Below are positions 16,290-51,700 of a stretch of 64,000 bases of DNA, piece after piece (positions within the stretch are counted from its first letter, which is position 1; every line of letters starts with the position of its first letter). Location: NCBI GenBank assembly GCA_024679065.1, contig JAGIQG010000004.1, forward strand, positions 62,682,001 through 62,746,000, in the 5' to 3' direction. This DNA comes from Sphyrna mokarran (lineage: Eukaryota). The position numbers and the translations under genes were made by a program. The notes beneath the pieces were generated by a model. It ran no database searches. It was not told the origin of the DNA and worked only from the letters and a program-made list of their open reading frames with translations.

Positions 16290-16451
16290 TTAAGTCCCTG
16301 TCGAAGCATGCCAATTTCTTTCATTCGGTTCTAATTTGATTGCAGCATAATCCGTACAATTCGCCTTCTGCTTCTGTATTCCCCTGTTAGCCGTACCAAT
16401 CGTACTTAGGGCTGCATAAGCCAAATTGCCATTCTCGCTTCTCTCCGGGAT
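16290..16451 (-). CDS. Exon 6: cytoplasmic tail with ITIM (LAYAAL, 16407-16424) and ITSM (TDYAAI, 16338-16355), TAA stop
   Basis: Acceptor tttttttttgtatatatttgtgtacag|ATC, 53 codons to TAA. Two canonical tyrosine motifs, with the Tyr residues 23 aa apart. Confidence 0.9.
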   Translation of the reverse strand: MPERSENGNLAYAALSTIGTANRGIQKQKANCTDYAAIKLEPNERNWHASTGT

Positions 16452-19400
16452 CTGTACACAAATATATACAAAAAAAAATCCAACACTAAATGATACCTTT
16501 TAGATAGATATGTTAAAAAAATACATGGACGTGCAGCCTTGTCTTCAAAATCTGACTTTGGATTTTTGAGTGAAAATGACATTGGAGTACAATTATTTGA
16601 TATCGCCGTACACAATATGCTATAATCAGGGAACTATGAATGATTATTTTCACATTTTGTACGTAAATAAAAATATGTCAAAGTGTTGTGCATCAAGGAA
16701 GAAATTGTCGTTTGGTTTCGCGCCTTCAATTCCAAGTGTATACTAGATGAACATAAGCAAGTTGAGCACGGAAAGGTCAAATAGCCCATGCGTCGATGTG
16801 TGTATTTCAAAATGCATAATCTGAACTACTAATTTAACCTTAATGCATAGTTTTCATCTTCATTCTCGCTTCCAATTAGGTACTTTCAATAAACTATTCG
16901 TATTAGGAGAAAATCCTTGTGTGTTCAAATCGCATTGTTGTGTTATTTCGTCATTCCTGATACACCTTATCCTTCAGAAAACAGGATAAATTTTACCAGG
17001 ATGGAAACGAAAGAGAATGATTAATTTCAACATTTCATTCATCTTCGAGTCAATTTGTTGATTTTGTGCAATCAAATTATGACGTTGTTAGAATCATTTT
17101 TGAATTAACCAATCTCCGTGGAAGTTGTAATTTCAGAGAATGCAATGCTGATGATATTCTGGGTGTATCACTAGCTATTAGTTTGTTGTTCTTTTTCCGT
17201 ACACTCGAGAATCAGACTCTGAGAATCCGTGATGAGGTTGTTTGTTTGCCATTCGTTAATTCTTATGCATTCATTATCCCTACTTCTTCCATCTTTTTTC
17301 ACTTTGCCCATTTCCAACGCATTTGAGGCCGGAATTTCACTTATCACATTTTTGCTCCCGTATGAGGTGAATGTGTTGAATTAGATAACTATTTTGGCCG
17401 AATGAATAATGCAGGGAACCCGAAAAAAAAAGCTATCAAAATAGGAAGGGTTGAAACAATTTCTTTTTTTTATCTCCTCTGGCAAAGATGCCACGAACAA
17501 TCATCTATCTTTTTTTATTATATGCTTGAATGTGGTTCAGTTATTCATAAATAATTCGTAATTTGCATATATATCACTGGAAGAGGTGGCAAATAATTTT
17601 AGAGTTTGGCACCTTTACAACTTTTTATCGTCTCGAAATTATTTCAAAACATGATTCGGCTGTCTTACCACTTCGAATACTGACACTTTTCACTCATACT
17701 TTAACATATTTCGTTGACCTTGTTCGGATTTTCAGGCTCCTGCAAAAAATATGTACCATTTCTACGCTCCGATTGGATTGCACCCATTCAATTTGCATGA
17801 TCATTGCAACAGGCAGATATAGTGTGGAAACATTGAAATTGAGTGACCACACGATGAGGCTGAACTTTATATTTTGCCTAATGACTTGATAAAGTGCAAC
17901 ATTCAGGTATTCTTATTCTTACATTTAACTTTTACTTAAATGATTGCATGATACTGCTCTTAATCACTCCATCGAGATGTATTTGTTATACTCTATTTCT
18001 GTGAAGAAAGACATTTAAACATTTCTCCCAAATTTATTTTTGTGGCTGCGAGTTTTTGGCCTTTTCTTGAGTCTTAACTTCATTTACATGAGTTTAATTG
18101 ATTTTCAACTAGTGTGCCAGGAATGCAGTGTTTCCATGTTTGTTTGTTTGTTTAAATAAACATTACTCTTTTAGAATCTACAGCATGAAAATAAAACCCT
18201 GTTGCAGAAAAAGAACGACACTCAGTCCATTATTAATTTCTTGCGAAAAAGGAAGGAAAATGCTTATTTTAAGTTGGCTTCCCAGCATGATTCCGTAACG
18301 GCAGATTCAGATCCTTGTACCTTTGAAAACATTGTCCATTTCAGCATTAAACGTCATCTCGCACAGTGAATTCCAAGGTGCCAGCACCAACTAGCTGAGA
18401 ACTGTTTCCTTCATGCCCCCTGCAATTCTATAATTATCACCTGAAAGCGTTCCTGAGTAATTGACATATCAGCTAAATCTTTTTTGTCGATGCTATCCTG
18501 CCCTCTCGTAATTTTATACGACTGAACTAAGTAACTGCTTGCTCTCCTTGGTTCTAAGGAAAATAGCTGCAGTTTAAATTTTTTCCTCATTGCATAAATA
18601 TTTATTTCCTAGAGCATTTATTGAAATATACTTTCCATACTCTCTGGGACCATTTCCTCTTGGTGTGTTTTGGAGATTAAAACGCTACCCAAAATTCCAT
18701 CTGAAACGAATCCACTGTTTGGGACTGTTCCAACATATATCCACCATAATTTATTGAATACATGAAAATATTCATTGTTTTTTTTGCCTATTCATCCACA
18801 TGTGCTACCAATTTTAGGGACCTATGAACATACACTCTAAGATCTCATATGTTGGCTCCCCTCCCCACCTCCCCCCCACCCCCCGTCAATATCCTCCCGC
18901 TTATTAAGTATCATAATGTTTTATTTGCCTTCTATTCTTACTCTGGTTGAATTCTATTCACCTATTTTCTGTCAACTTCACTTAACAATGGCTCGATGCT
19001 TCATGAAGGACGACATAGTCAATGTCCATGTAATCTTCAGAATATTCAATCCTGTAGAACATAGAACATTACAGCGCAGTACAGGCCCTTCGGCCCTCGA
19101 TGTTGCACCGGCCAGTGGACCCCCTAACCTAAACTATTCCAATATCATCCATATGCCTATCCACCGAACATTTGAATGTCCCCAAAGTAGGCGACTCCAC
19201 AACTGCTGCAGGCAGGGCATTCCACGCCCTCACCACCCTCTGGTAAAGAACGTGCCTCTGACATCCGTCCTTAATTTAATCCTTAATCCGTCCACCAACC
19301 TCTTAATTTAAAGTTATGTCCCCTCGTGTTGGTCATCACCATCCGAGGAAAAAGGCTCCCACCATCCACCCTATCCAGTCCTCTGATCATCTTATACGCC

Positions 19401-22400
19401 TCAATTAGGTCACCACGTAACCTTCTTCTCTCTAATGAAAATAACCTCAGGTCCCTCAGCCTTTCCTCATAAGGCCTTCCCACCATACCAGGCAACATCC
19501 TGGTAAACCTCCTCTGCACCCTTTCAAATGCTTCCACATCTTTCTTATAATGCGGCGACCAGAACTGTACGCAATACTCCAAGTGCAGCCGCACCAGAGT
19601 TTTGTACAGTTGTAACATAACCTCACGGCTCCTAAATTCAATCCCTCTACCAATAAAAGCTAACAAACCATACGCCTTCTTAACAACTTTATCAACCTGG
19701 GTGCCAACTTTCAAAGAGCTATGTACTTGTACCCCAAGATCCCTCTGCTCGACAACACTATTAAGGGTCCTTCCATTAGCCCTGTATTTCATATGCCTGT
19801 TATTCCTTTCAAAGTGAATCACCTCAGACTTATCCATATTGAATTCCATTTGCCACATCACGGCCCAGCTCTGCAACCTATCTATGTCCCTCTGCAAACT
19901 GTAACATCCATCCTCGCTGTCTACAACTCCCCCCACTTTGGTATCGTTAGCAAATTTACTAATCCAACCCTCTACACCCTCATTTAGGTCATTTATAAAA
20001 ATGACAAACAGCAGTGGCCCCAAAACAGATCCTTGAGGTACACCACTTGTAACTGCACTCCACGTTGAATATTTCCCATCAACGACCACCCTCTGTCTTC
20101 TATCAGCTAGCCAATTCCTAATCCAAACTGCTAAATCACCTTCAATCCCATGCATCTGCACTTTCTGCAGTAGGCTACCATGGGGAACCTTATCAAACGT
20201 TTTGCTAAAATCCATATACACTACATCAACTGTCTTACCCTTATCTATCTCTTTGGTCACCTCCTCAAAAAACTCAATAAGGTTTGTGAGGCACGTCCTA
20301 CCCTTCACAAAACCGTGCTGACTATCCCTAATCAATTTATTTCTCTGTAGATTCTTATAAATCCTATCCCTTATAATTCTTTCCAAGACTTTGCCCACAA
20401 CAAAAGGCAGGCTCACTGGTCTATAATTTCCAGGATGGTCCCTACTCCCCTTTTTGAACAAAGGGACAACATTTGCCATCCTCCAGTCTTCCAGCACTAT
20501 ATCTGTAGCCAACGACGACATGAAGATCAAAGCCAAAGGCTCTGAAATCTCCTCTCTAGCCTCCCAGAGAATCCTAGGGTAAATCCTATCTGGCCCAGGG
20601 GACTTATCAATTTTCATACCCTCAAGATTCGCTAACACCTCCTCCTTATGAACCTCAATCCTGCCCAGTCTACAAACTGGTATCACAGTCTTCTCCCCGA
20701 CAACGTTGTCTTTCTCCTGTGTGAATACTGACGAAAAATATTCATTCAGTGTCTCTCCTATCTCCTCAGGCTCCACGCACAACTTCCCACTGCTTTCTCT
20801 GACTGGCCGTAATCTTGCCCTAATCAACCTTTTATTATTTATATACCTGTAAAAAGCTTTAGGATTCTCCTTAATCCTATCCACCAAAGTCTTTTCGTGT
20901 CCTCTTCTAGCGCTTCTCAACTCCCTCTTTAGCTCCTTCCTGGCTAATTTATAGCTCTCCAGTGCCCTAGCTGAGCCTTCATGTCTCATCATTATATAAG
21001 CCTCCTTTTTCCTCTTCACCAGAGAGTCAACTTCCCCAGCACACCATGGTTCCCTCACTCGACCACTTCCTCCCTGCCTGGCGGGTACATATTTATTATA
21101 TTTCTTTAATTTCCTTAAATTATGTTCCTTAAATATGCTCCACATTTCAGATGTCCCCAGCCCCTGCAATATCCTGCTCCACCCTATGCATCCTAAATCT
21201 CTCCTAATAGCCCCATAATTACCTTTCCCCCAGCTATAACTACTGTTATTCAGTATGCGCCCATCCCTTTCCATCACTAAGGTAAACGTAACCGAATTGT
21301 GATCACTATCACCAAAGTGCTCACCCACCTCCAAGTCTAACACCTGGTCTGGTTCATTGCCCAGTACCAAATCAAATATAGCCTCACCACTTGTTGGCCT
21401 ATCTACATACTGAGTCATGAAACCTTCCTGCACACATTGAACAAAAACTGACCCCTCTAACGTACTTGAACTATAACTTTTCCAATTGATATTAAAAAAG
21501 TTAAAGTCCCCTATTATAACTACCCTGTTACTTTCACACCTATCCAGGATCAACTTTTCAATCCCTTCCTCTACTTCTCTGGAACTTTTTGGAGGCCTAT
21601 AAAAAACTCCCAACAGTGTGACCTCTCCTTTCTTGTTCCTAATCTCAGCCCACACTACCTCAGCAGACAAGTCCACATCAAACGTCTTTTCTGCCACTGT
21701 AATGCTGTCCTTAACTAACAATGCCATTCCTCCCCCTCTTCTACCACCACCACTGCTCTGACTGAAACATCTGAACCCCGGAAACTGCAACAACCATTCC
21801 TGCCCCTGCTCTATCCAGTCCCTGAAATAGCCACAACATCGAAGTCCCAAGCACCAATCTAGGTTGCAAGTTCATCCACCTTATTGCGTATGCTCCTCGC
21901 ATTAAAGTATACACACTTCAAACCACCCTCCCGTTTGCCACTATACTGCTGCGACCTAGAAACCTTATCCGTGACCTCCCTATTCACATCCTCCTGTATA
22001 CTGGCACACAAATTCAGGTTCCCATCCCTCCCCTGAATCAGTTTAAACCCCATCCGAATAGCACTGGCAAATTTACCCCCCAAGATATTGGTACCTCTCC
22101 AGTTCAGGTGCAGACCATCCCTCTTGTAGAGGTCCCACCTTCCCCAGAATGAGCCCCAATTGTCCAAATACCTGAACCCTTCCCGCCTGCACCATCCTTT
22201 TAGCCACGAGTTCAAATGTTCTCTCTCCCTATTCTTTTCTATGCTATCCCGCAGCACAGGTAACAAACCAGAGATAACCACTCCGTTTGTTTTAGCCCTA
22301 AGTTTCCACCCTAACTCTCTGAATTTCTGCTTTATATCCCCATCCCTTTTCCTACCTACGTCATGGGTACCTACATGCACCACAACTTGGGGCTGGTTCC

Positions 22401-25400
22401 CCTCCCCCTTAAGGATCCCGAACACTCGGTCAGAGATAGAACATAGAACATAGAACATAGAACAATACAGCACAGAACAGGCCCTTCGGCCTTCGATGTT
22501 GTGCCGACCAAAATAAAAAAGCAATGCCCCTCCAAACTAAACCATTCCCTTCTCTTCCATATACTTATAAACTAACCTCTTAAACGCCACCAAACTTGGC
22601 GCATCTACAACTGCTGCAGGCAGGGCATTCCACTCCCGAACCACCCTTTGGGTAAAGAAACTACCTCTGATATCCATCCTATAACTATCACCCCTTAATT
22701 TAAAGCTGTGTCCCCTCGTGCTAGCTTTCTCCATCCTAGGAAAAAGGCTATCACTGTCCACCCGATCTAAACGTCTAATCATCTTTTATGTTTCGATCAG
22801 ATCCCCTCTTAGCCGCCTCCTTTCTAATGAAAACAACCTCAAATCCCTCAGCCTCTCTTCATAAGGCCTGCCATCCATACCAGGCAACATCCTGGTAAAC
22901 CTCCTATGTACCCTGTACAATGTCTCCACATCTTTCTTATAATGTGGGGACCAGAACGGCACACAATACTCCAAGTGCGGCCACACTAGAGTTTTGTACA
23001 ATTGCAACATGATGTTACAGCTCCGAAATTCAAACCCCCTACCAATAAAAGCTAAGACTCCATATGCCTTCTTAACAACCTTATCGACTTGACTGCCTAC
23101 TTTCAGGGATCTATGCACAAATACACCAAGATCCCTCGGTTCATCAACACTATTAAGAATCCTACCATTAGCCCTATACTCTACACATTTATTATTCCTG
23201 CCATAGTGCATTACCTCACACTTTTCCACATTAAACTCCATTTGCCACCTCTCGGCCCAGCTCTGCAACTTGGCCAAGTCCCTCTGCAAACTATAACACC
23301 CCTCTTCACTATCTACCACTCCACCGACTTTCGTGTCATCTGCAAATTTACTAATCCATCCTTCAATACCCTCATCCAGATCATTTATAAAAATTACAAA
23401 CAGCAGGGGCCCCAAAAACAGATCCCTGAGGTACACCACTAGTAACCGAACTCCACGATGAATATCTCCCATCAACCACCACCCTCTGTCTTCTATCTGC
23501 TAGCCAATTCCGAATCCAATTAGCTAAATCACCCTCTATCCCATACATCTGCATTTTCTGCAGAAGCCTTCCATGGGACACCTTATCGAACGCCTTACTA
23601 AAGTCCATATGTACCACATCAACCGCCTTACCCCCATCCACCTCTTTGGTCACTTTTTCAAAAAACTCAATAAGGTTAGTAAGGCATGACCTACCCTTCA
23701 CCAAACCATGCTGACTATCCCCAATCAATTCATTTCTCTCTAAATAACTATAAATCCTATCCCTAATACTTCTCTCCAATACTTTGCCCACAACAGAAGT
23801 AATACTCACTGGCCTATAATTCCTTGGAAGATCTCTCTTCCCCTTCTTGAACAATGGGACCACATTTGCTATCCTCCAGTCCTCCGGAACCACACCCGTA
23901 ACCAATGACGACCTGAAGATCAGAGCCAGAGGCTCTGCAATCGCCTCTCTTGCCTCCCAGAGAATCCTAGGATAAATCCCGTCTGGCCCAGGGGACTTAT
24001 CCAACTTCAAACCCTCAAGAATATCTAGCACATCCTCCCTATCTACTTCAATACTTTCCAGTTTGCAACCCTGTACCTCAGTGTTCTCCATAAGTACATT
24101 TACATCACCCTGCGTGAATACCAAAGAGAAATATTTATTCAGTGCCTTTCCAATCTCTTCAGGCTCCACGCACAACTTCCCACCGCTGTCTGTGACTGGC
24201 CCTAATTTTGTCCTAACCAATCTTCTATTCTTAACATATCTAAAAAAAGGATTAAGGAGAATCCTAAAGCTTTCTTTCGATATGTTAAGAATAGAAGATT
24301 GGTTAGGGCAAGATTAGGGCCAGTCATAGACAGCAGTGGGAAGTTGTGCGTGGAGCTGAAGAGATTGGTGAGGCACTGAATAAATATTTCTCTTCGGTAT
24401 TCACGCAGAGTGCTGGAAATGTAGCTATGGAGATCACTGAGGTACAGGGTTGCAAATTGGGGAGTATTGTAGTAGATAGGGAGGATGTGTTAGAAATTCT
24501 CGAGGGTTTGAAGTTGGATAAGTCCCCTGGGCCGGACGGGATTTACCCTAGGATTCTCTGGGAGGCAACAGAGGAGATTGCAGAGCCTCTGGCTCTGATC
24601 TTCAGGTCCTCGTTGGTTACGGGTGTGGTTCCGGAGGACTGGAGGATAGCGAATGTGGTCCCATTGTTTAAGAAGGGGAAGAGAGACCTTCCAGGGAATT
24701 ATAGGCCAGTGAGTCTTACTTCTGTTGTGGGCAAAGTATTGGAGAGAATTATTAGGGATAGGATTTATAGTTATTTAGAGAGAAATGAATTGATTGGGGA
24801 TAGTCAGCATGGTTTCGTGAAGGGTAGGTCATGCCTTACTAACCTCATTGAGTTTTTTGAGAAAGTGACCAGAGACGTGGATGGGGGTAAGGCGGTTGAT
24901 GTAGTATATATGGACTTTAGTAAGGCGTTTGATAAGGTGGCCCATGGAAGACTTCTACAGAAAATGCAGATGTGTGGAATAGAGGGTGATTTAGCTAATT
25001 GGATTAGGAATTGGCTGGCAGATAGAAGACAGAGGGTGGTGGTTGATGGGAGATATTCATCGTGGAGTTCGGTGACGAGTGGTGTGCCTCAGGGGTCTGT
25101 TTTGGGGCCCCTGCTGTTTGTAATTTTTATAAATGATCTGGATGAGGGTATTGAGGGATGGATCAGTAAATTTGCAGATGACACTAAAGTCGGTGGAGTG
25201 GTAGATAGTGAAGAGGGGTGTTATAGTTTACAGAGTGACTTGGACAAGTTGCAGAGCTGGGCCGAGAGGTGGCAAATGGAGTTTAATGTGGAAAAGTGTG
25301 AGGTAATGCACTTTGGCAGGAACAATAAATGTGTAGAGTATAGGGCTAATGGTAGGGCTCTTAATAGTGTTGAGGAACAGAAGGATCTTGGAGTATGTGT

Positions 25401-28400
25401 CAATAGATCCCTGAAAGTAGGCAGTCAAGTGGATAAAGTTGTTAAGAAGGCATATGGAGTCTTAGCTTTTATTGGTAGGGGGATTGAATTTAGGAGCCGC
25501 AGCATCATGTTGCAACTGTACAAAACTCTAGTGCGGCCGCACTTGGAGTATTGTGTGCAGTTCTGGTCCCACATTATAAGAAAGATGTGGAGGCATTGGA
25601 GAGGGTACAGAGGAGGTTTACCAGGATGTTGCCTGGTATGGAGGGCAGGTCCTATGAAGAGAGGTTGAAGGATTTGAGTTGTTTTCGTTAGAAAGGAGGC
25701 GGCTAAGAGGGGATCTTATTGAAGCATATAAGATGATTAGAGGTTTAGATAGGGTGGACAGTGATAGCCTTTTTCCTAGGATGGAGAAAGCTAGCACGAG
25801 GGGACACAGCTTTAAATTAAGGGGTATGAGTTATAGGACGGATATCAGAGGTAGGTTCTTTACTCAAAGAGTGATTAGGGAGTGGAATGCCCTGCCTGCA
25901 GCTGTTGTAGATGCGCCAAGTTTGGTGGCGTTTAAGAGGTTAATTGATAAGTATTGGAAGAGAAGGGAATGGTTTAGTTTGGAGGGGCATTGCTTTTTAT
26001 TTTGGTCGGCACAACATCGAAGGCCGAAGGGCCTGTTCTGTGCTGTAATGTTCTATGTTCTATGTTCTAAAGAAAGCTTTAGGATTCTCCTTAATCCTAT
26101 CAGCCAAAGTCTTCTCATGTCCCCTCTTAGGTCTCCTCAATTCACTCTTTAGCTCCCTCCTGGCTAATCTATAGCTGTCCATTGCACTAACTGAGCCTTC
26201 AAGCCTCATCCTGACATAAGCCGCCTTTTTCCTTTTAACCAGCAAATCAACGTTTTTCGTACACCAAGGTTCCCTTACTCGACCATTTCCTCCTTGCCTG
26301 ACAGGGACATACTTATCAAGGACTCAGATCAGCTGCTCCTTCAATAAGCTCCACATTCCAGATGCTCGCAGTCCCTGTAGTTTCCTAGTCCAATCTATGC
26401 ACCCTAATTCTCTCCTGATTGCCTCATAATTACCCTTCCCCCAGCTATGACTACTTCCCCCAGCTTCATGCCTATCCCTATCCATCACTAAGTTGAACGT
26501 AACCGAATTGTGGTCACTATCACCAAAATGTTCACTAACTTCCAAGCCTAACACCTGGTCTGGCTCATTGCCCAGCACCAAATCCAATGTAGCCTCACCT
26601 CTAGTTGGCCTATCTGCATACTGAGTCATAAAACCTTCCTGCACACTTTGTACGAAAACTGACCCCTCTAACGAGCTAGAGCTATAGCTATTCCAATCAA
26701 TATTAGTAAAGTTAAAGTCCCCCATAACAATTACCCTATTACTTTCACTCCTGACCAGAATTGACTTTGCAATCCTTTCCTCAACCTCTCTAGAACTTTT
26801 AGGAGGTCTATAAAAGACTCCCAACAGGGTGACCTCTCCTCTCCTGTTTCTAATCTCAGCCCATACTACCTCAACAGACAAGTCCTCATCAAACTTCTTT
26901 TCTGCCACTGTGATAGAGTCTTTGACTAATAATGCCACTGCTTCCCCCCTTCTACCTCCTTCTCTACTCCGACTAAAGCTATCACTGACCCCAGCGCCTG
27001 GGAGGCAACATACCAACCGCGAGTCCCGCTCCTTCCCACAGACTCTCCTATCTATCCCCTTAACTAGGGAGTCCCCAATCACTAATCCAGATCTTTCTCC
27101 CCCTTCCCACCTGAGCATCAAGGACAGGCTCAACTCCCGAGACCTGTACTCCATGGCTTACCCCGGTTGTATCTTCATCCCCAACAGCATCCAAAGCAGA
27201 GTACTTATTACGTAGAGGAACAGCCTCAGGGGAACTCTGCACTGACTGCTTCTTACCCCTTCTAACAGTCACCCATGTATCACATTTAGGAGTAACTATC
27301 TCCCTGTAGCTTTTATCAGTAGCCATTTCTGCTTTCCTAATAATTCTTAGTTTCTCCAGTTCCAGCTCCAGGTCCCTAACACGGTCCTCAAGGAGGTGGA
27401 ACTGGATGCACCTCTGGCAGGTGTAATGAGCTGGGACACTACCAGTGTCCCTCACCTCAAAAATCCCACAGGAGGTACATCGCACTGCCTGCACTGCCAT
27501 CCCTATTACTTCCTTTACACTGAAACAAATATAAACTTAAACTTACCTGCTCACACTCCTAGTCGCTCTCCTTTTTTTATTAGGTTAGAGGAGTGGGGAG
27601 GATTGGGATACTCTACACGTGTAGAGCATTAGGATTCTTCACCTTCCCAATTTATGGAATGTATCTACATTCATCTAGGACCCAATATTGCGCCTCCTGG
27701 ATTGCCACTAGGAATTACGCTCCAGATACAGGTATGTTGTTTCATCATTACAATTTTTCATTCTTGCTGAGCCAATTTTTGAATAAATGGTCACTGTTTT
27801 CCTCATGCAAGCCGGTTACTTTTCTTATTGGTCTGAAATGTTAGACCCCGTCAAATGACTGCACTAATATACACTGCCTCAGAAACACTCCTTGTTACTA
27901 GCTCAAGCAATGGGTTAATTTGATAAGGTGTAAAAGCTATTGCCTGTCCCTTATAGACAGTTGCCTTTAGAAATGATATTCCATCCTTTTTCTCATAAAC
28001 TAAGGGTAATAGTTTGGCAAACGCCAAATTCTGATTGATCTATAAGGATGGTCAAAGAGTGAAATAAATATGATAGTCTTAATTTAGCAGTTATAGGTGA
28101 GAATTAGAAAATTTAAAAGTGATTATGATAATCTTGTTTACGATCAATTTAAGTTAAATGAATAATGAAATAAAGCTTAGAATTAGGTTCAGAAAAAATG
28201 GAATTTTGACCTGATGATGTCCATTTACTCCGCTTTTTTTTAAAAAAAACAAATAGAGAGTTAACATATTTTGTCCCAGACAGAGTACATTTTTAAGTTT
28301 TAAGATTTTGCAGCAGATTTAAGACATTCCAGAATTCATTAGTCGATGATAAATATAGTAAATGCATTAGCTTGTATCAAAATCTAGCATGGGGATAGAA

Positions 28401-31400: not shown

Positions 31401-34400
31401 GATAAACATAATCTAAGATTTTTAGCACATAAATTAAGAAACAGGAGACGGACAATTTTGAACGTAACAAAACGTATAAACATACCGTTTCTTCAGAAGG
31501 AGGCGATTCAACTCCAGCTGTCACAATGCATTGAAAATAAAAATCGAAACATAATTGTCAGGTTATTTGTTTTATGGAGCAGGTGAGAAATGCAATTTGC
31601 ATCTTTAAAGTAACGCACGGTTCTGAATTTTCCCATTGTTCTCGCCACTGAAATTTTAGAGGGGCGTGGAGTGCTTTGGGATGGGGGCATGTAGTGGAGA
31701 AGAGTGGGGGAGTGCCGCACAACAGTCCATTGAAGCTGGGTAAGGTTCTTCGGTTTTGAGGTGAGCGCGGCCGGAGATCTGATATTATAAATGTACATGA
31801 ACATAATTGCGCACGCACTATTCAAATATTCAACTGGCCTCAAATTTCGGTATGTATCTTAACATTTTAAACTTAAATTGCTAAATCTGTTCTTACCTTT
31901 GCAAGTCCGTAACACGCATTGCTTCCCGAAGATGGTCACAAGCACAAGGCAGATGACTCCACTGACTACGCATCCAGCTGTCAACAATACAAATTTAATG
32001 TCGGTATCTGCAAGATTAATGAATGTTGCTGAGATAAATCTTCATATAGGAATAAGGAAAAATAATTCAAAAAGGATGACAAAATAACTCTACAAAATAT
32101 TTTATTAGCTTCCTTTCAGCGTAACTGTGATTTGATTCTATATATTGTTGTCATAGTGAAAAGTATTATTTCTAAACCACAGACCACAGTCAGTAAGGAT
32201 AGACAACAACACCTCTTCCGTGATCATCCTCAACATCAGTGCTTTGCAAGGCTATGACATCAGCTCAATACTATGTTTCTTATTGACCTTTGACTGTATG
32301 GACAAATTCCCCTCCAACTCAGTTATTGCGCAGTATACAGACAATGAACAGCGTTCATAGAGAAGGAATGGAGAGAATGCAGAATATAGTATACCGTCAT
32401 AACTAGTGTGCAGAGAAAGATCAATTTAATGCGAGGTAGGTCCGTTCAAAAGTCTAATGGTAGCAGGGAAAAACAAAATTGTTCTTGAGTCGGTTGGCAC
32501 GTTATTTTGGACTTTGGTATCTGTCTCCCTACAGAAGAAGGAGAAAGAGAGTATGCCGGAGGTCCGTGGGATCACTGAGTATGCTAATTGTTTCTCAGAG
32601 GCAGCGGGAAATGTAGACAGTGCCCGTGGATGGGAGGCTGGTTTGATTGATGGACTGGGCTTCGTCCATATCTCTTTAAGTCTCTTGTGGTCTTCGGCAG
32701 AACAGGAGCTATGTCAACCTGTGATACAATCAGAAAGAATGTTTTCTAAGGTGCATCTGTAGATGTTCGTAAGACTTGCAGCGGACATGATACATTTCCT
32801 TAGTCTTCTGAAAAGGTCCAGGAATTGGTGGGCTTTCTTAACTATAACATTCTCATGGAGGAACCGGGATAGTTCGTCGATGATCTGGACACCTAAAAAC
32901 GTGAGGCTTTCCACCATTTCTACTTTGTTTCCATTGATGCAGACAGGGCCACGCTCTCCACTACAATTTCTGAAGTTGATGACTACCTGCTTCGTTTTAT
33001 TGACATTGAGAAAGAGATTATTGTGACACTCAGTTCGCCAGATCATCTATCTCTTTCCTGCATAGTGTCTCGCCAATAATGAGATCCAGCCAACAACCGT
33101 ACTGTCATCAGCAAACTTGAAAACACAGTTGGAGGGAAATTTGTCCGTACAATCAAAGGTGAATAAGAAATATAATATGGAGCTAATGCCATAGCCTTGC
33201 GGAACACCGATGTTGAGGATTATTACGGAGGAGGTATTATTGTCTATCCGTACTGACTGCGGTCTGTGGTTTAGGAAGTCAAGAATCCAGTCGCAGAAGG
33301 TGGAGCCGAGCCCCAGCAATGAAGTTTGGAGATGAGCCCCGAAGGAACAGTCGTATTGAAGTCAAAGAACAAAACAGCACGGGAAACAGGCCTTTCGGCC
33401 CAAGTCTGAGCTGTAGTTTATGAATAAGAGACAGACACAGATGTCTTTGTTTTCTAGGTGTCCTAGGATTGAGCATAGGGTCAGAGAGAATTTTGAATCT
33501 TTGTGATGATAGTTTAACTTGGCCACTTCGAATCTCGAATGTGGTCAAAAGTACAACGCAATATATCGTAAAGATGTCAATTTTATCTTTCTATTTGTAT
33601 TGCTGGATAACTTGTGTTCTATCTAGGGCACCATGACAGCTCAAAGACTATCGATGTGGCTGTGCAGACACTTGGAATTGGGCCGGTGTCTGCGGGAGTT
33701 TGCGCGTTCTCCCCGTGGTTGCGTGGGTTTTCTCCGGGCACTCCGGTTTCCTCCCACAACCCAAAAATTCGCTCTTAGGCTGATTGGGAAACAAATTGTC
33801 CCTGTGGTGAAAATTTTCCATATTAGAAATAATATATATATTATTATATAGGAATATTAAAATAGGATAATGTATTTGCTACTATATAGTATGACGGCGG
33901 CGCGGGCTCGTTGGGCCGAAGGGCCTGTTTCCCGTGCTGTGTTGCTTAAAAAAAAAATCTATATGATTGGCTTTTAGCCATAAAGTTGAACATCACTTTT
34001 TTTTTTCTTAAAACAGCCACGGAACACAAACTTAGCCTGATATGGATTTGATTGGTCACAACTCCAAAGCCACATAGTAGGCAACTCAGAGTTAATCTTG
34101 TTAGCTAATCGGAGACATCTATTCACTGTGCATTTACAGAATTACCTGCATTTTAGAGTTTTGGGCGCATTGTGGCACAGGGCCTAAAACGCACGTTTTC
34201 AATAGCAATAATGGCGCGGTTCAGAGTTATTGTTACGTATTGGAAGCAACAGAGTACGAAAACACATGTTAGGGTACAGAGCTTGCAGAAACCAGAGGGG
34301 CTGTAATTAATGCAAGTGGGAACACTTAAAAACTGCCACCGACTTAGGCGATTTAGAGTCAAAGAGAAACACAGGCTATCAGTGAAACATAGAACTCTGT

Positions 34401-40400: not shown

Positions 40401-43400
40401 GACAGGTGATCTTAAACTAATATTTGTCATCAGTATTTGCTGTTGAGAAAAACATGAATATTAGGGAATTTGGGAAATAAAAGTGATGTCTCGAGGAGTG
40501 TACATATTAGGGAGAAAGAGATGCTGGATATCTGAAAGAGCATCAAGATAGATAAATCCCCAGGGCCTGGTGAAGTGTATCCCAGAACATAGCGGCAAGT
40601 CAGGGAAGAAATTGCTGGTCCTCTGGCAAAGATATTGAATCTGTCATAGCCACAGGTAAGGTGCCTGAAGATTGGACGGTGGAAAAGTTTTGACTTTCTT
40701 TAAAAAGGGCTGCAGGGAAAAGCCTGGGAACTATAGGCCAATGAGCTTCACAACTGTGGTGGGTAAGTTGTTTGAAGGTATTTTGAGGTCAGGATCTACT
40801 GACATTTAGAGATGCAAGGATGGCTTTGTGAATGGAAAACCATGTCTCCAAAATGTGATTGAGTTTTTTTGAAGGGATAATCAAGATGAGGGCAGTGAAG
40901 TTTATGTTGTCTACATGGACTTTGGCAAAGACTTTGAGAAAGTACCACATGATATGCCGTTGCATAAAGCTAAGGATGAAGTAGCTAAATGGATACAAAA
41001 TTGGCTTGGTGGCATAAGCCAGAGGATGATTGTAGAGGGTTGTTTTTTCAAATTGGAGGCCTGCGAACAGCTGTGTGTCTCAGAGTTCCATACTGAATCC
41101 ACTGTCATTTGTCATTTATATTCATGCTTTGGATGAGAATATAAGAGAAATGGTTAGTAATTTTGCAGATGGCACCAAGATTGGACAGGGAAGAACGTTA
41201 TCTCATATTGCAATGGGATCTTAATCAATTGGCAAACGACTGATGAGTTTAATTGAGATAAATGCAAGGTAGTGCATTTTGGAAGACTGAACAGGGCTGG
41301 ACTTATTCAGTTAACGGTAGGCGTTGAGGAAAATTACAGACCAAAGACATCTAGGGGTACAAGTCCATAGCTCCCTGAAAGTGGAGTCATAGGTAGACAG
41401 AATGGTGAAATAGGCATTCAGCATGTTTGGTTTCATTGATCAGAACATTGAATATAGGAATTGGGACATTATGTTGAAGTTGTACAAGACACTGGTAAGG
41501 CTACACTTGGAATACTGTGTATAGTTCTGGCCATGGAATTATAGAAAATATTATTAAACAAAACAGAAGGCAGAAAATAAATGCTAGAGTGTTACTAGGA
41601 CTTGATGGTTTGAGTTATAAGGAGAGGTTGGATACACTGGGACTGTTTTCTCTGGAGTGTAGAATGCTGAGGGTGCTGTTATCGATGTATATAAAATAAT
41701 GAGGGACACAGGTCAATTAGATAGTTAACAGGGGTGTCTAAAACTAGAGGGCACAGGTTTAAGATGAGAGGAAAGAGATACAAAAGAGTCGAGTGGGGTA
41801 ATTTGTTCACATAAAGGCTGGTGAGTGCCTGGAACAAGCAGCCAGAAGTAATAGTAGAGACGGGTACAATTTTGTCTTTTAAAATCATTTGGACAGTTAA
41901 ATGGGTGAGATGGGTGTAGAGGGATATGGGCTAAATACTGGCAATTAGGGCTAGCTTAGAGTTTTAAAGAAAAAAGAGTGGCATGGACAAGTTGAATAGA
42001 AAGGCCTGTTTCCATGCTAGAAACCTCTATGACTCTATGAATCTATGACCAATAAGTTAATTAATGCTACAGTAGAGATAAATTGCACGTGCAGCCGTTT
42101 TTTAATAAAGTTTTAAAATTGTTGTTTATCTAGACGTTAGTTATGAATTCATGGTTCACTTCAGATCAATAGGTTTTAATTCTGATATTCATCAGATTAC
42201 AAAATATTAATTATAATGGATTACGTAGCTGTGTTCGCATCTATAAAATAAAGTAAGAAATATGGGCTCAATTCTAATGACATACATATTTGGAGAAACA
42301 TTGCATTGTAAATGGTTATATCTGGCTTATCAGTAATCACTAAACGTTACAAAGGAACAATTCAGTATCTGGATTACTTTACATTTCGCAAATGATGTAC
42401 CCTTGTATTGGCAATTTCCAGCATTCATTGTATTCAATAAGCCTCATTGATCAACATACTTTCTTATATCTATTGCATGCAACCGCCAACAGAATACCGT
42501 AATTTTCGAGACATATAAGATGATTAGAGGTTTAGATAGGGTGGACAGTGATAGCCTTTTTCCTAGGATGGAGAAAGCTAGCACGAGGGGACACAGCTTT
42601 AAATTAAGGGGTGATAGTTATAGGACGGATATCAGAGGTAGGTTCTTTACCCAAAGGGTGGTTCGGGAGTGGAATGCCCTGCCTGCAGCAGTTGTAGATG
42701 CGCCAAGTTTGGTGGCGTTTAAGAGGTTAGTTGATAAGTATATGGAAGAGAAGGGAATGGTTTAGTTTGGAGGGGCATTGCCTTTTATATTGGTCGGCGC
42801 AACATCGAAGGCCGAAGGGCCTGTTCTGTGCTGTAATGTTCTATAAATACAAAAACTGAGTTAGCGTTATCGTGCAATGTTTTCAGGAGCAAGTAGCGGC
42901 ATAAAGTGTTCTCTTAACCTTCCAGACTTCATATCCATGACGTTTTAATCCTGTTTTACATAAACATTGTTCTTAAGCAGAACATTATTTCTATGCAAAA
43001 TCAAATAACATTTCAAGTGATAGTTAGAAAATCCATCCGTTGGCATCTTACCTGGGTTAGAGCTAGATACCAGGTAAACAGATAATTTCGGAGCTTGAAG
43101 CGCCGTATGAGATACCAAACAAATGTAAGGCGTTCCTATCTGGATTGGCTGTGACATCTGCAAGATGCTGGAGGCTTCATAGAGACCTGATTCGTTCAAG
43201 CGCGTTGTTGTTTTTATTCCGGTTGTAATCCTGCTTCCATTTTTGTACCAGTGAAATGTAATAGCCGCCGGATAAAAGTCAACTGTTTTGCATTCAAGGT
43301 GAAGATAGATGTTTGAATTTTCATCAGACATTATCCGTTGTATCGTTGGTTCATGAGGAGAAGCTATATTGGGATTCAGGGATAATATTTCAGTGTTGAA

Positions 43401-46400
43401 TATTTAGTGGATTATCACAATTCATAACCTAATCGCATTCATATTGTTTCATTATTTTGGAGAACATTTTATATCATGGGACCTCTGCACCTTTTGAATT
43501 ACCTAAGAACAGTCATATTTAATCGACTTTTTTTAGAAGTCACAACCATCAGAACCAACATAGATTTTCTCATTTAATGAATCAACTTCAAGTGCATTTC
43601 GACTTGTTGAAACATTACAGTCTGTAAAGTACTCATTGCATAACAATGTCATAAATTAAGTGCTCGTCTGTTTAAACTTCTGAGAATTACGTTAGCAATG
43701 CTGTTCAAAATACTTGGCGAACTGCGCTTCAATTAGAACAACTTTGCGGAATAGTAGATGCCGCTCGAAAAAGGATACTGATTGATTGGCAGTGGGACTT
43801 ATTTTGCAGGTGAATTTAAGGGAGACAATTTCTCTTTTGGAACATTGTAAGCTTAGTGTAACAGAGATATCCTGAGGTGCTATCTTTACCATTATCTGCA
43901 TTACACTATCGCTAACATTTCCATCTTTTCTGTCACGTTAAAGGCGATGGCAGTTCTGCCGCAGAAAGGCCAACTTGAATTGACTTCACTCTCACCTCAT
44001 ACTGAAGTCTAGTAGAATAGTAATCTTATGCGTTGAGCCATCACTCCACTCAGGTCAATTGTTTAATAAAGAACGAAGAACAACTCAGCACAGGAGCAGG
44101 CCCTTCGGCCCTACAAGCCCGCGCCGCCCGTTTTAACACTCAGTGAGTGCATCATTCCAATCCTTCTTCTACCTATGACTTTTGTCTACATCTCAGGGAC
44201 TCCACAACAAAGGGGTACAAATTTAGAGAATTATATGTGCGCCACATTAAGGGAGATCAAATTTAGGGACAATTTATTAACACCAATCAGCCTAAAAACA
44301 CATTTTGGGGGTGTAGGAGGAAACTGGGGCAGCCTTAGAAAACCCACGCAAGCACGGAGGGAATGTGCAAACTCCCACAGACACCGACTCAAGTCGGAGA
44401 TCAGATCCGAGTCCCTGTGACTGCACAGCAAACAGTGATAGTCACGGGGCTGTCGTGTTGCCCGTCAATTGGTCTAGCTTAACCGTACACTAACGACGTG
44501 AAACACTAGGCAACTCCCGAAGCAACATCCAAGAGCAGCTCTCGCACGACCACCGCGTGTATGCCCTTTGTTGGCCAACAAGTCGGACCGAATCGCCTGT
44601 GGATGTAAAAGACAAATCAAACATACAACAGCTTATGGAGACATTCACGGAAGATCCCCAGTAGCTCCAACGTAAGAGACAGGTGAGCCATAAAGTATGC
44701 TGGACGACCCAGAGGAATCTGTTGATTCCCAGGGACTACTGAGGCTCTTGATCCTTAACTAGAGCATTCTTTTGTATCTCTCCATCGCTAGTCTATTCAT
44801 GTGCCTATCTAGGTAAGTCTTAAACAACTCTAGCGTGCCTGCCTCCACCACCTTGCTTGGTAGTGTATTCCACGCCCCGACAACCCTCTGTGTGGAAAAC
44901 CTCCCTCTAACATCTGAATCATACCTCGCCCCTCTCACCTTAAGCCCGTGATCCCTCGTGAATTTCACATCCAACCTGGGAAAAAGCTTCCCACTGTTCA
45001 CTCTATCTATACCCCTTATAATCTTATACACCTCTATTAGGTCTCCTCTCATTCTCCATCTTTCCAGGGAGAACAACCTCAATTTGCCCAATCTCTCCTC
45101 AATAATGGAATATTTCTGGAATCACACAACCGAACTGATTGTACTGAAGCACGTTGGGTAGTTTATCGCAAATAGAAGACTCATTCTCCGATTTTTGGCC
45201 ATACAGCTTTATGAAGAGTCCTCCCAAAATTGTCCCCATAATTACTTAGAAAATTTACCTCGAGTTCCATGAAATAAACAATGACTTACAAGTATTATTG
45301 TTAAATGAATGCCTTCACTGGATAACGTGAGGGATTAAATAGCGATTTACGGTAAACTAGAAAGGTAGGCCTGAGCAAAATAGCTCCTCCTAATTAAGTT
45401 TTAGTCAGAAAGTTCCTTACAGTTTATTAAGATTGAACCTTAAAATACTAATGCTATTTTTAAATTATAAGGTCACTATCCAAAAAATTTGATGCATTGA
45501 TAGTAAATGTTATTTTCAAGAGCGGCAGCATCCGAAAATACCATTTGAACGAGTTAGCATATGTGTACCTTCATTCGACCTCCTAAACATTAAATTTTAG
45601 GATTGTCAAAATGTATCAAATATGATAATATTCTGAATAACGTATATGCGAAAGAAATATTTGGGGGTATTCAAATTATATCGGCACAACTGGAGTCGAG
45701 CCTTATTACGCTATAAAATATGCCGCAATCTGCATAATTTGCCGGCTTTTCAGTAAAGAAAGTAATTTAACTAGATATATTGTTAAATTACACACACACA
45801 CACACACACATATATATAAGATATGATATTTTATACATATATAATATGAGGCACACAAACACACACATATATAATTATATACATATATACATACAATTAT
45901 ATTTCATGCATTGAAAATATTAGCTGACGTTTTGTATGTAGTGATAATTCAGAAATAGATAATTGAGGTGACAAAGGCCGAATGATCAATACATGCTTCA
46001 AAAGGACATGCCATCGTGCTTTTTTTATTTTCCATTTCTAAGGTGTGTATATAAACATGTTTGAAAGAGAATTCCAAAAATTCCTTCCGCGTCAATGACA
46101 CTTACCGTGGACAACAATTGTTGATCCAGTTCCGTTAGTCATTCCCGCTCTTCCTTTTTGGACACCGCAGCAATAAACCCCGGCGTCTTGGAAACGGACA
46201 TTAAGGAGTTGGAAGGAGCTTTCCCCTTTCCTGTGAAAAAAATGTTTCCGCCTGTCTGAGCCTGGTTGCATAAATACATCTTCGCCAAGTCTCCACCAGA
46301 AAACATTCACTTCTGAATTATCTGACAGAGGAATGAACGCACAAGCAATGGTAATATTTTCACCGATCTTAACAATCATGTGTCCGGGACTTTGCGACAC

Positions 46401-46612
46401 CTGGGACTGGGTATAGCAAATAACTTCTAAAGAGAGAGGGGGAAAAAATAAACAAACACATTATCAATCAATTCAACATTTCAGATGTAAATTGCAGTGT
46501 TTCATAGTGATGTTGGAATACATATAAATAAAAATGGAAACAAAATGCAGCGGATACCTGTCATGATCGTCACCAAGGTAAGTCTGCTCTGAAGAACAGC
46601 GAAAACATTCAT
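16290..46612 (-). CDS. Six-exon IgSF type-I receptor gene (leader-VJ-C1-TM-ITIM/ITSM), 330 aa; join(46558..46612,46106..46426,43052..43363,31897..32007,31486..31517,16290..16451)
   Basis: Exon lengths 55+321+312+111+32+162=993 nt, one open frame, all introns GT..AG, phases 1,1,1,1,0. Translation: [330 protein letters not shown]. Confidence 0.85.
22437..26979 (-). mobile_element. CR1 'B', 5'-truncated, inserted in A and itself interrupted at 24249/26066
   Basis: Own (TTCTATG)n tail at 22437. ORF2 fragments 22537-24220 and 26060-26979 join at KENPKAF(F)RYVKNRR. Confidence 0.92.
24250..26069 (+). mobile_element. CR1 'C', 5'-truncated, inserted in B in opposite orientation
   Basis: 440-aa RT ORF, 3' tail ending at 26069, approximate TSD tctaaa(a/g)aaag at 24239-24249 and 26066-26076. 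Confidence 0.95.
27611..27626. promoter_or_regulatory. Palindromic E-box CTCTACACGTGTAGAG in the CR1 A 5'UTR
   Basis: Perfect 16-bp palindrome. A homologous palindrome ACTTCACGTGAAGT lies at 58688-58701 in another CR1 5'UTR. Confidence 0.6.
29460..29624 (+). mobile_element. 3' end of the (TTCTTTG)n-tailed SINE/LINE family
   Basis: ggaacatcggggtggcggcgtgggctcgttgggcc...ttgttctttgttctttg, matching the reverse complement of 1756-1850. Confidence 0.7.
31486..31517 (-). CDS. Exon 5: short cytoplasmic linker ([11 protein letters not shown])
   Basis: Acceptor ttttcaatgcattgtgacag|CT, donor ACG|gtatgt. Converts phase 1 to phase 0, as needed to join exon 4 to exon 6. Confidence 0.8.
31897..32007 (-). 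CDS. Exon 4: transmembrane domain
   Basis: Acceptor ttaatcttgcag|AT, donor AAAG|gtaaga, phase 1-1. Encodes [37 protein letters not shown] (23 uncharged residues followed by basic residues). Confidence 0.9.
32170..32320 (+). repeat. Inverted partial duplicate of REX1 segment 33126-33276
   Basis: aaaccacagaccacagtcagtaaggatagacaac...aaattcccctccaact matches the reverse complement of 33126-33276. Confidence 0.85.
32330..33362 (-). mobile_element. REX1/Babar-type LINE RT fragment
   Basis: [60 protein letters not shown] motifs typical of REX1-clade RT. Confidence 0.85.
33626..33948 (+). mobile_element. V-SINE (HE1-like), standalone copy of the family found in the chimeras
   Basis: Head gggcaccatgacagctc, V core gcgtgggttttctccgggcactccggtttcctcccac, tail gggccgaagggcctgtttcccgtgctg. 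Confidence 0.85.
35940..36160 (-). repeat. Unclassified dispersed repeat; inverted homologue at 43740-43965
   Basis: Shared blocks gattg(t/a)ttggcagt, aatttctcttttgg(t)aacattgtaagctta, ttacactatcgc, aaaggc(a/g)at(a/g)gcagttctgcc. Confidence 0.75.
36310..37850 (-). mobile_element. Old degenerate CR1 with an inserted V-SINE (+; ~37100-37380)
   Basis: [29 protein letters not shown] (degenerate [15 protein letters not shown]). Confidence 0.65.
37855..39275 (+). mobile_element. V-SINE interrupted by two head-to-tail CR1 3' fragments (-; 38082-38470 and 38471-39181)
   Basis: tRNA head and V core at 37855-38081. The SINE tail resumes at ~39200 (gactaggtcattttcagagtaatttcattgcagcgctaatgtaagcct). 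Two separate TTCTATG tails. Confidence 0.85.
40040..42050 (+). mobile_element. Old degenerate CR1 ORF2 with (CTATGA)n tail
   Basis: [36 protein letters not shown] remnants. Confidence 0.85.
42508..42844 (+). mobile_element. Young CR1 3' end
   Basis: 81-aa ORF2 C-terminus identical in translation to 38567-38812. Confidence 0.95.
43052..43363 (-). CDS. Exon 3: Ig C1-set domain
   Basis: Acceptor aatatag|CT, donor CCAG|gtaaga. C1 hallmarks [31 protein letters not shown]. Confidence 0.93.
43740..43965 (+). repeat. Unclassified dispersed repeat; homologue of 35940-36160
   Basis: Same shared blocks as 35940-36160, in the opposite orientation. Confidence 0.75.
44068..45104 (-). mobile_element. Chimeric CR1 ORF2 end + long 3'UTR + V-SINE, copy 2
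   Basis: ORF 44759-45091 ([18 protein letters not shown]...WNTLP) followed by linker, V-SINE core and TTCTT-type tail. Confidence 0.85.
45790..45900. repeat. (CA)n/(TA)n microsatellite
   Basis: acacacacacacacacacacatatatata... Confidence 0.9.
46106..46426 (-). CDS. Exon 2: Ig V-set domain with fused J-like G strand
   Basis: Acceptor ccctctctctttag|AA, donor CACG|gtaagt. V motifs: QVSQSP, B-strand Cys (ITIAC), FWW, DAGVYCC, J-like NGTGSTIVV. Confidence 0.93.
46558..46612 (-). CDS. Exon 1: signal peptide ([18 protein letters not shown])
   Basis: ATG at 46612, hydrophobic stretch, phase-1 donor ACAG|gtatcc, 131-nt intron to the V exon (typical Ig leader layout). The donor is non-optimal, so this is the least certain exon. 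Confidence 0.65.
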
Positions 46613-48070: not shown

Positions 48071-48710
48071 GCCAGGCCTCAGATACCTGTAGGAATTATT
48101 TAAACTACTACTTCCGATTTTTGAAATCACGTTTACTCTGCTTGATTAAATTGTGGTTTTCTCAATGTGCTGCAACGACATCATGCCGAACGTACTACAA
48201 CATTTGTGCCATGCTCGTTAAAAAGCTCACTGGATTTTGGTTTCCTGTTCTGTGGTATCTTTGTGCTTCCATTGCGTCATATTAATCACAGAAGCTTAGA
48301 GCAGTAAAAAGGTGAAAAGAAAAATCATTTTCTAAATTCATTTCTCTTCCAACTATTTCACTGAACTTTCAAAATGCTGAACCGAGAAAACGCCAAATTA
48401 AATAGGTAGGTGTTCTGTGGAAGAGAAAATTCAGTTTCATGGTGGAATTGACGCAAAATTCAGTTTTAATCGATGAACCAAGAAGTTATATTTCATTTTA
48501 GTTAGGTTTCAACGGAAAACGGTACATGTATAACGGTTGATCTCTGACGCTTGTCATGTCTGTTCTTGTGTAATGGAGAATTCCCGTATATCTTGACAGC
48601 CACACAAGCAGCAGATGAGACCAATTATTCGATGATTTTAAGATCTCTTCGGGCTAAACGAATCAAGGGAAACGGGACAAAGCAAGAACATGTTGAATTG
48701 GATATCGGCC

Positions 48711-51700
48711 TCAGGATAATTCGAGAGGTTGAGGAGGATATTGGCAGGAGTAACAAAGAGATAGTCACTCCTAAAAGTGATTTTTGGGTAACTATTAGGA
48801 GGACGGGTAAGAAGCAATCGGGTAGACAATACACTGGGGCTATTCCCCTCCAAAACAAATTTTCTGTCTTGGAGGCTACAGTTGAGGAAGAATCAACTGG
48901 AGATGACCAAAGGGAGCAGGTCTCTGGGGGTGAGCCTGCTGAAAATGCTCAGGTGGGTAGGGAAAATAAGAGATTGGGCCTAGTAATTGGAGACTCCATA
49001 GTTAGAGGGACAGATAGGAGAGTAAATAGTAATAAAAGTGACTCAGGGCTGGTGTGTTGCCTCCCAGGTGCTGGAGTCCAGGATGTCGCAGATCGGGTTT
49101 TTAGGATTCTTAAGGGAGAGGGGAGTCAACCCCAAGTCATAGTTCATGTAGGGACACATGATATAGGAAGGACGAGGGAAGGGGATATTAAACAGAAATT
49201 TATGGAGTTGGGGTGGAAGCTTAGGGCCACAACTGGCAGAGTGGTTATCTCTGGACTCTTGCCTGTGCCAAGGGATAGTTTAGAGAAGAACAGAGAGAGG
49301 GAATGTTTGAACTCATGGCTGCGGGGATGGTGCAGGAGGGAGGGGTTCATGTTCCTGAACAATTGGGACTCATTCTGGGATAGGTGGGACCTCTACAAGA
49401 GAGATAGTCTACACCTGAACCAGAGGGGAACTAATATCTTGGGGGGAAAATTTTCTAAGGCTATGCAGGGGGCTTTAAACTGATTCGGGGGGAGGGGTGG
49501 GATCCTAAGTAGTTGGGGTGCTAAGAGGGATGAGAGTAAGGGGGTCATAGAGGAAAGCTGTAAAACACAGCAGCGTACGGGTGGGGTAGGGCATGGTTTG
49601 AAATGCGTATACTTTAATGCAAGGAGTATTCGCAATAAGGTGGAGGAACTTGCAGCTTGGACCAGTACCTGGAACTTCGATGTTGTGGCCATTTCAGAGA
49701 CTTGGGTAGAGCATGGACAAGAATGGATGTTGCAGGTTCCGGGGTTCAAATGCTTTAGTCGGAGTACAGAAGGAGGTAGAAGGGGGGGGGAGTGGCATTA
49801 TTAGTCAAAGACTGTATCACAGTGAGAGAAAAGAAGTTTGATGAGGACTTGTCTGTTGAGGTAGTGTGGGCTGAGATTAGAAACAGGAGAGGAGAGGTCA
49901 CCCTGTTGGAAGTCTTTTATAGACCTCCTAAAAGTTCTAGAGAGGTTGAGGAAAGGATTGCCAAGTCAATTCTGGTCACGAGTGAAAGTAATAGGGTAAT
50001 TGTTATGGGGGACTTTAACTTTACTAATATTGATTGGAATAGCTATAGCTCTAGCTCGTTAGAGGGGTCAGTTTTCGTACAAAGTGTGCAGGAAGGTTTT
50101 TTGACTCAGTATGTAGAGAGGCCAACTAGAGGTGAGGCTACATTGGATTTGGTGCTGGGCAATGAGCCAGACCAGGTGTTAGGCTTGGAGGTTGGTGAAC
50201 ATTTTGGTGATAGTGACCACAATTCGGTTACGTTAACCTTAGTGATGGATAGGGATAGGCATGAAGCTGGGGGCAGTAGTTATAGCTGGGGGAAGGGTAA
50301 TTATGAGGCCATAAGGAGAGAATTAGGGTGCATAGGTTGGAGGAGTAAACTACAGGGACTGGGAACATCGGAAATGTGGAGCTTATTCAAGGAGCAGCTG
50401 CTGCGAGTCCTTGATAAGTATGTCCCTGTCAGGCAAGGAGGAAATTGTCGAGTAAGAGAACCTTGGTGTACGAAAAAAGTTAATTCGCTGGTTAAAAGGA
50501 AAAAGGAGGCTTATGTCAGGATGAGGCTTGAAGGCTCGGTTAGTGCAATGGATAGCTATAGATTAGCCAGGAGGGAGCTAAAGAGTGAGTTCAGGAGAGC
50601 TAAGAGGGGACACGAGAAGACTTGGGCTGATAGGATTAAGGAGAATCCTAAAGCTTTCTTTAGATATGTTAAGAATAGAAGATTGGTTAGGGCAAGATTA
50701 GGGCCAGTCATAGACAGCAGTGGGAAGTTGTGCGTGGAGCCTGAAGAGATTGGTGAGGCACTGAATAAGTATTTCTCTTCGGTATTCACGCAGAGTGCTG
50801 GAAATGTAGCTATGGAGAGCACTGAGGTACAGGGTTGCAAATTGGGGAGTATTGTAGTAGATAGGGAGGATGTGTTAGAAATTCTCGAGGGTTTGAAGTT
50901 GGATAAGTCCCCTGGGCGGACGGGATTTACCCTAGGATTCTCTGGGAGGCAAGAGAGGAGATTGCAGAGCCTCTGGCTCTGATCTTCAGGTCGTCGTTCG
51001 TTACGGGTGTGGTTCCGGAGGACTGGAGGATAGCGAATGTGGTCCCATTGTTCAAGAAGGGGAAGAGAGACCTTCCAGGGAATTATAGGCCAGTGAGTCT
51101 TACTTCTTTTGTGGGCAAAGTATTGGAGAGAAGTATTAGGGATAGGATTTATAGTTATTTAGAGAGAAATGAATTGATTGGGGATAGTCAGCATGGTTTT
51201 GTGAAGGGTAGGTCGTGCCTTACTAACCTCATTGAGTTTTTTGAAAACGTGACCAAAGAGGTGGATGGTGGTAAGGCGGTTGATGTGGTATATATGGACT
51301 TTAGTAAGGCGTTTGATAAGGTGGCCCATGGAAGACTTCTGCAGAAAATGCAGATGTATGGGATAGAGGGTGATTTAGCTAATTGGGTTAGGAATTGGCT
51401 AGCAGATAGAAGACAGAGGGTGGTGGTTGATGGGAGCTATTCATCGTGGAGTTCGGTGACAAGTGGTGTACCTCAGGGGTCTGTTTTGGGGCACCTGCTG
51501 TTTGTAATTTTTATAAATGATCTGGATGAGGGTATTGAAGGATGGATTAGTAAATTTGCAGATGACGCTAAAGTCGGTGGAGTGGTAGGTAGTGAAGAGG
51601 GGTGTTATAGTTTGCAGAGGGACTTGGGCAAGTTGCAGACCTGGGCCGAGAGGTGGCAAATGGAGTTTAATGTGGAAAAGTGTGAGGTAATGCACTTTGG

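Follow-up and report, generated by a model that had tools for sequence, protein, structure and literature searches.

BTLA carries an ITIM and an ITSM in tandem in its cytoplasmic tail, below a single Ig domain, together with a Grb2-type tyrosine upstream of the ITIM. The same two motifs are found in the same order in PD-1, about 25 residues apart (Y223/Y248, according to an excerpt of PMC12151841), below a single IgV domain and a Ser/Thr stalk (passages of PMC12151841 and PMC11599192). As described in the excerpt of PMC12151841, the C-SH2 domain of SHP-2 prefers T at -2, A at +1 and I at +3, its N-SH2 domain prefers L at +3, aromatic residues at pY+4/+5 favour SHP-2 binding, Ala at ITIM pY+1 favours SHP-1, and the SHP phosphatases are conserved in sharks. 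Such receptors can also belong to paired-receptor families which, in the defining part of PMC3533184, are clusters of genes comprising ITIM members and short-tailed members with an Arg or Lys in the TM, all with similar ectodomains. Finally, non-rearranging VJ-C1 receptors form a class that is searched for the origins of antigen receptors (passages of PMC12227049 and PMC10751288); VJ-joined receptors are listed in a part of PMC11599192, and three of the known VJ genes, NKp30, PRARP and UrIg, are located in the MHC (excerpt of PMC10751288).

The window analysed here is a 64-kb stretch of vertebrate DNA from the shark Sphyrna mokarran, with many retroelement reading frames. It contains an intact six-exon receptor gene shaped like an antibody chain, of which exon 6 is the last coding exon (Table 1). 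The six minus-strand exons encode an open 330-aa protein, the five introns are all GT-AG with matching phases, and the exons follow the order leader, joined VJ, C1, uncharged TM, short exon and tail; the TM core, at residues about 235-256, has no charge, as the initial annotation had stated. The stop-to-stop frame that includes the tail motifs (16293-16499, 69 aa) is without an ATG and overlaps a 75-aa frame (16409-16633). Exon 5 is probably spliced to exon 6 in S. mokarran, as had been presumed, since both splice signals and orthologue models support this junction: exon 6 opens in phase 0 after an AG acceptor (16452) in a pyrimidine-rich context, and the donor that closes exon 5 (31486) has the same phase; in addition, the equivalents of both exons are joined in the same frame in the RefSeq/UniRef orthologue models. 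Furthermore, exon 6 is the sole match in the window to the family tail profile, and scanning of intron 5 with this profile reveals no tail-like exon besides it. Much of intron 5 and of the upstream region is filled by nested LINE endonuclease/reverse transcriptase frames (19283-27536 and 48548-52318), which we take to be CR1-like. Exon 4, which is symmetric, is skipped in frame in isoform X2 of Chiloscyllium plagiosum and in the Pristiophorus model, and a soluble form would result from this skipping.

Table 1. Features of the receptor gene and of its tail, in positions of the 64-kb window.
Feature	Position	Strand	Remarks
Exon 1, leader peptide	46558..46612	-	ATG at 46612, phase-1 donor; 68% to N-terminus of Mustelus orthologue
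Exon 2, germline-joined VJ domain	46106..46426	-	Pfam V-set
Exon 3, C1-set domain	43052..43363	-	Pfam C1-set, E 6e-12
Exon 4, TM exon, 111 nt, phase 1-1	31897..32007	-	Family TM profile, E 5e-11
Exon 5, cytoplasmic spacer, 32 nt, phase-0 donor	31486..31517	-	Agrees with orthologue models
Exon 6, coding part, cytoplasmic signalling tail, 53 aa + stop	16290..16451	-	Family tail profile
ITIM LAYAAL, Tyr289 (codon 16418-16416)	16407..16424	-	4/6 columns invariant in 7 orthologues
ITSM-type TDYAAI, Tyr312 (codon 16349-16347)	16338..16355	-	4/6 columns invariant in 7 orthologues
Candidate polyadenylation signal AATAAA	16259..16264	-	Pattern only
Second candidate AATAAA	16076-16081	-	Pattern only

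LAYAAL and TDYAAI lie where the initial annotation had placed them and fit the ITIM and ITSM consensus as quoted in an excerpt of PMC12151841. Tyr289 and Tyr312 are the only tyrosines of the tail and are 23 residues apart, a linker of 17 residues, predicted to be disordered, lying between the two motifs. By chance, 0.17 tandems of this kind are expected when 64 kb are read in six frames, and at least one is present in 16 of 100 Markov resamples. The motif pattern alone is thus within chance, and it is its conservation in orthologues that decides the case.

Orthologue models are found in 11 shark species, two of them ending after C1 and being therefore uninformative for the tail. Both motifs, and with them the two tyrosines whose conservation the initial annotation had proposed to check, are kept with the same spacing in eight of the nine models that have a C-terminus (Mustelus, Heterodontus, Heptranchias, Rhincodon, Stegostoma, Pristiophorus, Chiloscyllium plagiosum and Hemiscyllium). 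When seven of these orthologues are aligned with the gene under study, Hemiscyllium being read separately, 8 of the 53 exon-6 columns are invariant, all of them within the two motifs, versus 0 of the 41 columns outside. The pY-2 residue is fixed as L/M/V in the first motif and as T in the second, and this holds, like the spacing of 23, in the orthologues and in many paralogues, including a member from Callorhinchus. The residue at pY-1 of TDYAAI is freely variable (D here, E/H/Q in orthologues), and aromatic residues are absent from pY+4/+5 of both motifs. The ninth model, XP_038661940.1 of Scyliorhinus canicula, has a different C-terminus, with neither TM nor motifs, and corresponds either to a degenerate gene or to a wrong model. 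The orthologues are 1:1 and group in one clade that spans galeomorphs and squalomorphs, with supports of 100/99 for V and 99 for C1; no ray orthologue appeared in our searches. The gene is already known as a RefSeq model, the V-C1 orthologue cluster of RefSeq being the same gene, with the same clade and the same tail (XP_078066426.1 in Mustelus, XP_067906095.1 in Heterodontus, XP_067853502.1 in Heptranchias, XP_020368203.2 in Rhincodon and XP_059507768.1 in Stegostoma). Its names are loose, automatic and contradictory (Ig lambda-like, tapasin-related, CD276, SHPS1-like and B7-H6-like), and no function is attached to them.

Our main reading, to which we give a probability of about 0.8, is that exon 6 is a conserved two-tyrosine tail by which a type I VJ-C1 receptor would inhibit immune-cell activation via SHP-1/SHP-2-type phosphatases. 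The V domain would bind a ligand, probably a self molecule that is conserved, the one basis for this self-ligand step being that the gene is single-copy while its paralogues expand. Tyr289 and Tyr312 would then be phosphorylated by a Src-family kinase, and a phosphatase, which could be SHP-2, SHP-2L or SHP-1, would dock across the disordered linker, with its C-SH2 domain on the ITSM-type site (T -2, A +1, I/V +3) and its N-SH2 domain on the ITIM (L -2, A +1, L +3). Once released, it would damp nearby ITAM signalling, for instance that of the Arg-TM members of the family. This assignment of the distal motif to C-SH2 and of the proximal one to N-SH2 matches the SH2 preferences given in the excerpt of PMC12151841. 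The missing aromatic residues at pY+4/+5 count against docking of SHP-2 on the tail. From the sequence, we infer that the tail could recruit SHP-1/SHP-2.

The two tyrosines might instead serve mainly another partner (AP-2 sorting, SHIP or Csk), in which case the protein would be a trafficking or scavenging receptor and not an SHP-coupled brake. YAAL and YAAI both fit the YxxPhi sorting consensus, and the lack of aromatic residues downstream of the tyrosines is in agreement with this possibility. However, the fixed pY-2 residues and the fixed spacing, which extend to many paralogues and to Callorhinchus, suit tandem-SH2 binding, and sorting needs neither of them, so that we consider this alternative improbable. 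Still less probable is that the distal motif acts as a true switch, which would bind SAP/EAT-2 in some cells and make the receptor activating there, in a SLAM-like manner. The initial annotation had suggested such binding, and TxYxx(V/I) is indeed fitted in the gene and in its eight orthologues; the suggestion is nevertheless weakened, as, for a switch of the CD150 type, pY-1 has to be hydrophobic (excerpt of PMC12151841), whereas this position is freely variable here and hydrophobic residues are absent from it. Finally, it is very improbable that exon 6 stays outside the transcript in S. mokarran or that the gene has a role outside immunity: the retroelement-bearing 15 kb that separate it from exon 5, the chance rate of the pattern and the catshark model that ends differently would be compatible with this, but they are outweighed by the in-phase acceptor, a 72% identity to the Mustelus terminal exon, an invariance restricted to the motifs and an intron with no other tail-like exon.

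The main reading, that of an SHP-coupled inhibitory receptor, resembles what is known of PD-1 and BTLA, and the initial annotation had called the tail PD-1/BTLA-like. This description stands for the inhibitory-type ITIM-then-ITSM tail, and is otherwise only an analogy, as the ectodomain is of VJ+C1 type, the locus is not that of PD-1, and the letters and spacing of the motifs are closer to those of SIRP-alpha (24 residues) than to the PD-1 consensus. With PD-1, the gene shares the order of the motifs at a similar distance, the uncharged TM and the Ala at ITIM pY+1, as found in cartilaginous-fish PD-1. Identity with PD-1 is rejected: a V and a C1-set domain are found in place of the single IgV and stalk, and the gene lies on the contig of FTO and COG4 (C993), away from the match over the cut-off (C882) to ATG16, a gene linked to PD-1, the locus comparison covering this one marker. 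Furthermore, LAYAALST and TDYAAIKL miss the extended consensus (I/V)(D/E)YG(E/V)L(D/E)F and (T/V)EYATIx(F/Y), which is that of bony vertebrates and from which shark PD-1 departs. Identity with BTLA is also rejected, the shark protein having two Ig domains and only two tail tyrosines.

Exon 2 encodes both the V and the J-like strand, with a GxG in the G strand; no canonical RSS is found in the 64-kb window, nor any heptamer at 42-47 kb. A rearranging Ig/TCR chain is thus ruled out. In place of the Phe/Trp of J segments, an Asn-Gly-Thr/Ser sequon precedes the GxG (46106-46140), and its Asn is the same in all 12 family members aligned; a glycan on this residue could block antibody-like V-V pairing. 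The AlphaFold model of the Mustelus orthologue comprises the V and C1 domains, a TM helix and a tail predicted to be disordered (pLDDT <50, residues 262-316). Fold searches and PDB sequence searches confirm the V and C1 folds; antibody chains, MHC II, CD79b, NCAM2 and others tie in these searches, and no family is named; SIRP-alpha (2wng) comes at rank 5 for the family profile in the PDB, among antibody chains.

The contig of the gene gives 37 matches to its V exon and 38 to its C1 exon, arranged in clusters at 54.2-55.0 and 62.4-63.3 Mb, with one gene at 50.2 Mb. When about 10-30 kb downstream of each of the 40 units on this contig are scanned with the family profiles, an ITIM/ITSM-type tail exon is found in 24 units, including the gene under study (one being weak, E 0.46), and a TM with an N-terminal Arg in 6; in 10 others, some of which look broken, the scanned downstream DNA contains neither. 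Both types of receptor also exist among relatives in sharks, rays and Callorhinchus. The inhibitory gene at 54.51 Mb and its Arg-TM counterpart at 54.88 Mb share 98% identity in the V domain and 93% in the C1 domain. With its 24 tail units, its 6 Arg-TM units and this near-identical pair, the family is a paired-receptor family as defined in the excerpt of PMC3533184. The gene under study has no near-identical activating partner in its own genome, where its nearest paralogues show 48% (V) and 46% (C1) identity in trees and the best genome-wide V match reaches 51%. Within a large on/off receptor family of cartilaginous fish, which comprises about 40 units and has hardly been studied, it is a stable member present in single copy; among the papers searched, no description of this V-C1 family was found.

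Several features of the family and of its surroundings can be added. Between 54.19-54.52 and 54.88-55.04 Mb, two subgroups each pair inhibitory with Arg-TM genes on opposite strands, the domains of these pairs being 89-98% identical, which suggests a recent exchange or duplication of ectodomains. In some paralogues, for example at 54.50-54.51 Mb, the tail exon occurs in two or three copies, giving four to six tyrosines and indicating that the ITIM/ITSM pair is a modular exon, and an orphan tail-like exon lies at 54812224 (minus), on the strand opposite to the nearest gene. At its right-hand edge, the cluster of 62.4-63.3 Mb is flanked by long single-frame 7TM receptor ORFs (L097:4223-5134 and L103:6302-7081); in the flanks (200 kb, 28 of 909 non-repeat ORF candidates scanned), two 7TM receptors and one reverse transcriptase are matched. 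COG4 lies between the two family clusters, and both FTO and COG4 are human 16q genes. MHC class I is on another contig (C1548, with all 53 MHC-I matches), and IgH-type C1 exons, labelled by inspection, are on a third one (C994).

The closest resemblance is to SIRP-alpha (SHPS-1, CD172a), which also has a VJ-type V followed by a C1-set domain and whose first ITIM/ITSM-type pair has similar letters; like the shark family, SIRPs comprise inhibitory and activating members in clusters. The nearest named Atlas matches are SIRP-alpha clusters (0.96), and the family tail profile gives 7-18 bits with bird and bat SIRP-alpha tails, a score without a PD-1/BTLA control. However, SIRP-alpha has two C1 domains (V-C1-C1) and four tyrosines in two pairs, versus one C1 and two tyrosines in the gene under study (some paralogues have four or more), domain identity is only 22-29%, and the activating shark members carry an Arg, whereas SIRP-beta couples to DAP12. 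SIRP is linked to NSFL1C, and the SEP-domain genes, which we take to be NSFL1C-like, are on C668 and C1326, with none on the contig of the family, this being one marker only. When the genome is queried with a coelacanth SIRP-like sequence, only unspecific matches are obtained among the 122 of 401 candidates that were scored, the best at E 8e-9, and C668 has none, which does not imply that SIRP is absent, and searches for CD47 and for the opioid-precursor family give no match in the genome, a result uninformative on their presence.

In trees, the family clade (95/94) and the SIRP clade (97/94) are separate, in an open fork. With V+C1 and 21 rows, none of the tested sisters is rejected (p-AU 0.19 for SIRP, 0.44 for a V-C1 gene on C335 and 0.24 for IgH+UrIg2-like). 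A first V tree took in six C1 domains, and its deep forks are for this reason disregarded; the accompanying C1 tree is a quick version. On C335, two C1 exons that do not belong to the family lie at 19.17 and 19.31 Mb (L127 and L138); the one at 19.17 Mb is preceded by a joined VJ exon whose EIPPP CDR3 resembles that of CD28H, and no tail was found in the nearby DNA scanned. PRARP, reportedly described by Fu in 2019 as a V-C1 receptor with ITIM/ITSM, shares the joined VJ exon with the shark family, as do UrIg and NKp30; these genes are MHC-linked (passages of PMC10751288 and PMC12227049), whereas the family is apart from MHC class I. On the MHC class I contig, NKp30-like V exons form their own branch, and NKp30-like joined VJ exons, so labelled by resemblance and some of them in tandem, lie at 96.77-96.79 and 107.68-107.70 Mb.

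The signalling module of this gene is a textbook one, and the receptor that carries it is not. Tentatively, the gene could be a shark-specific immune checkpoint: in a VJ-C1 paired-receptor family forming the cartilaginous-fish sister group of SIRPs, it would be the stable framework gene, kept in single copy, and would recognise a self ligand that is conserved, whereas the genes around it would be in a race with pathogens. If this is true, a SIRP-type system would predate the split between cartilaginous and bony fish, and would lie on a third locus, of 16q type, apart from the MHC and from the antigen-receptor complex. Little is charted of the large paired-receptor families of sharks, and a gene with five different database names is now given a consistent identity. 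Being conserved and unpaired, this member would be the best entry point of the family for finding a ligand and for testing a SIRP-like self-recognition brake in sharks.
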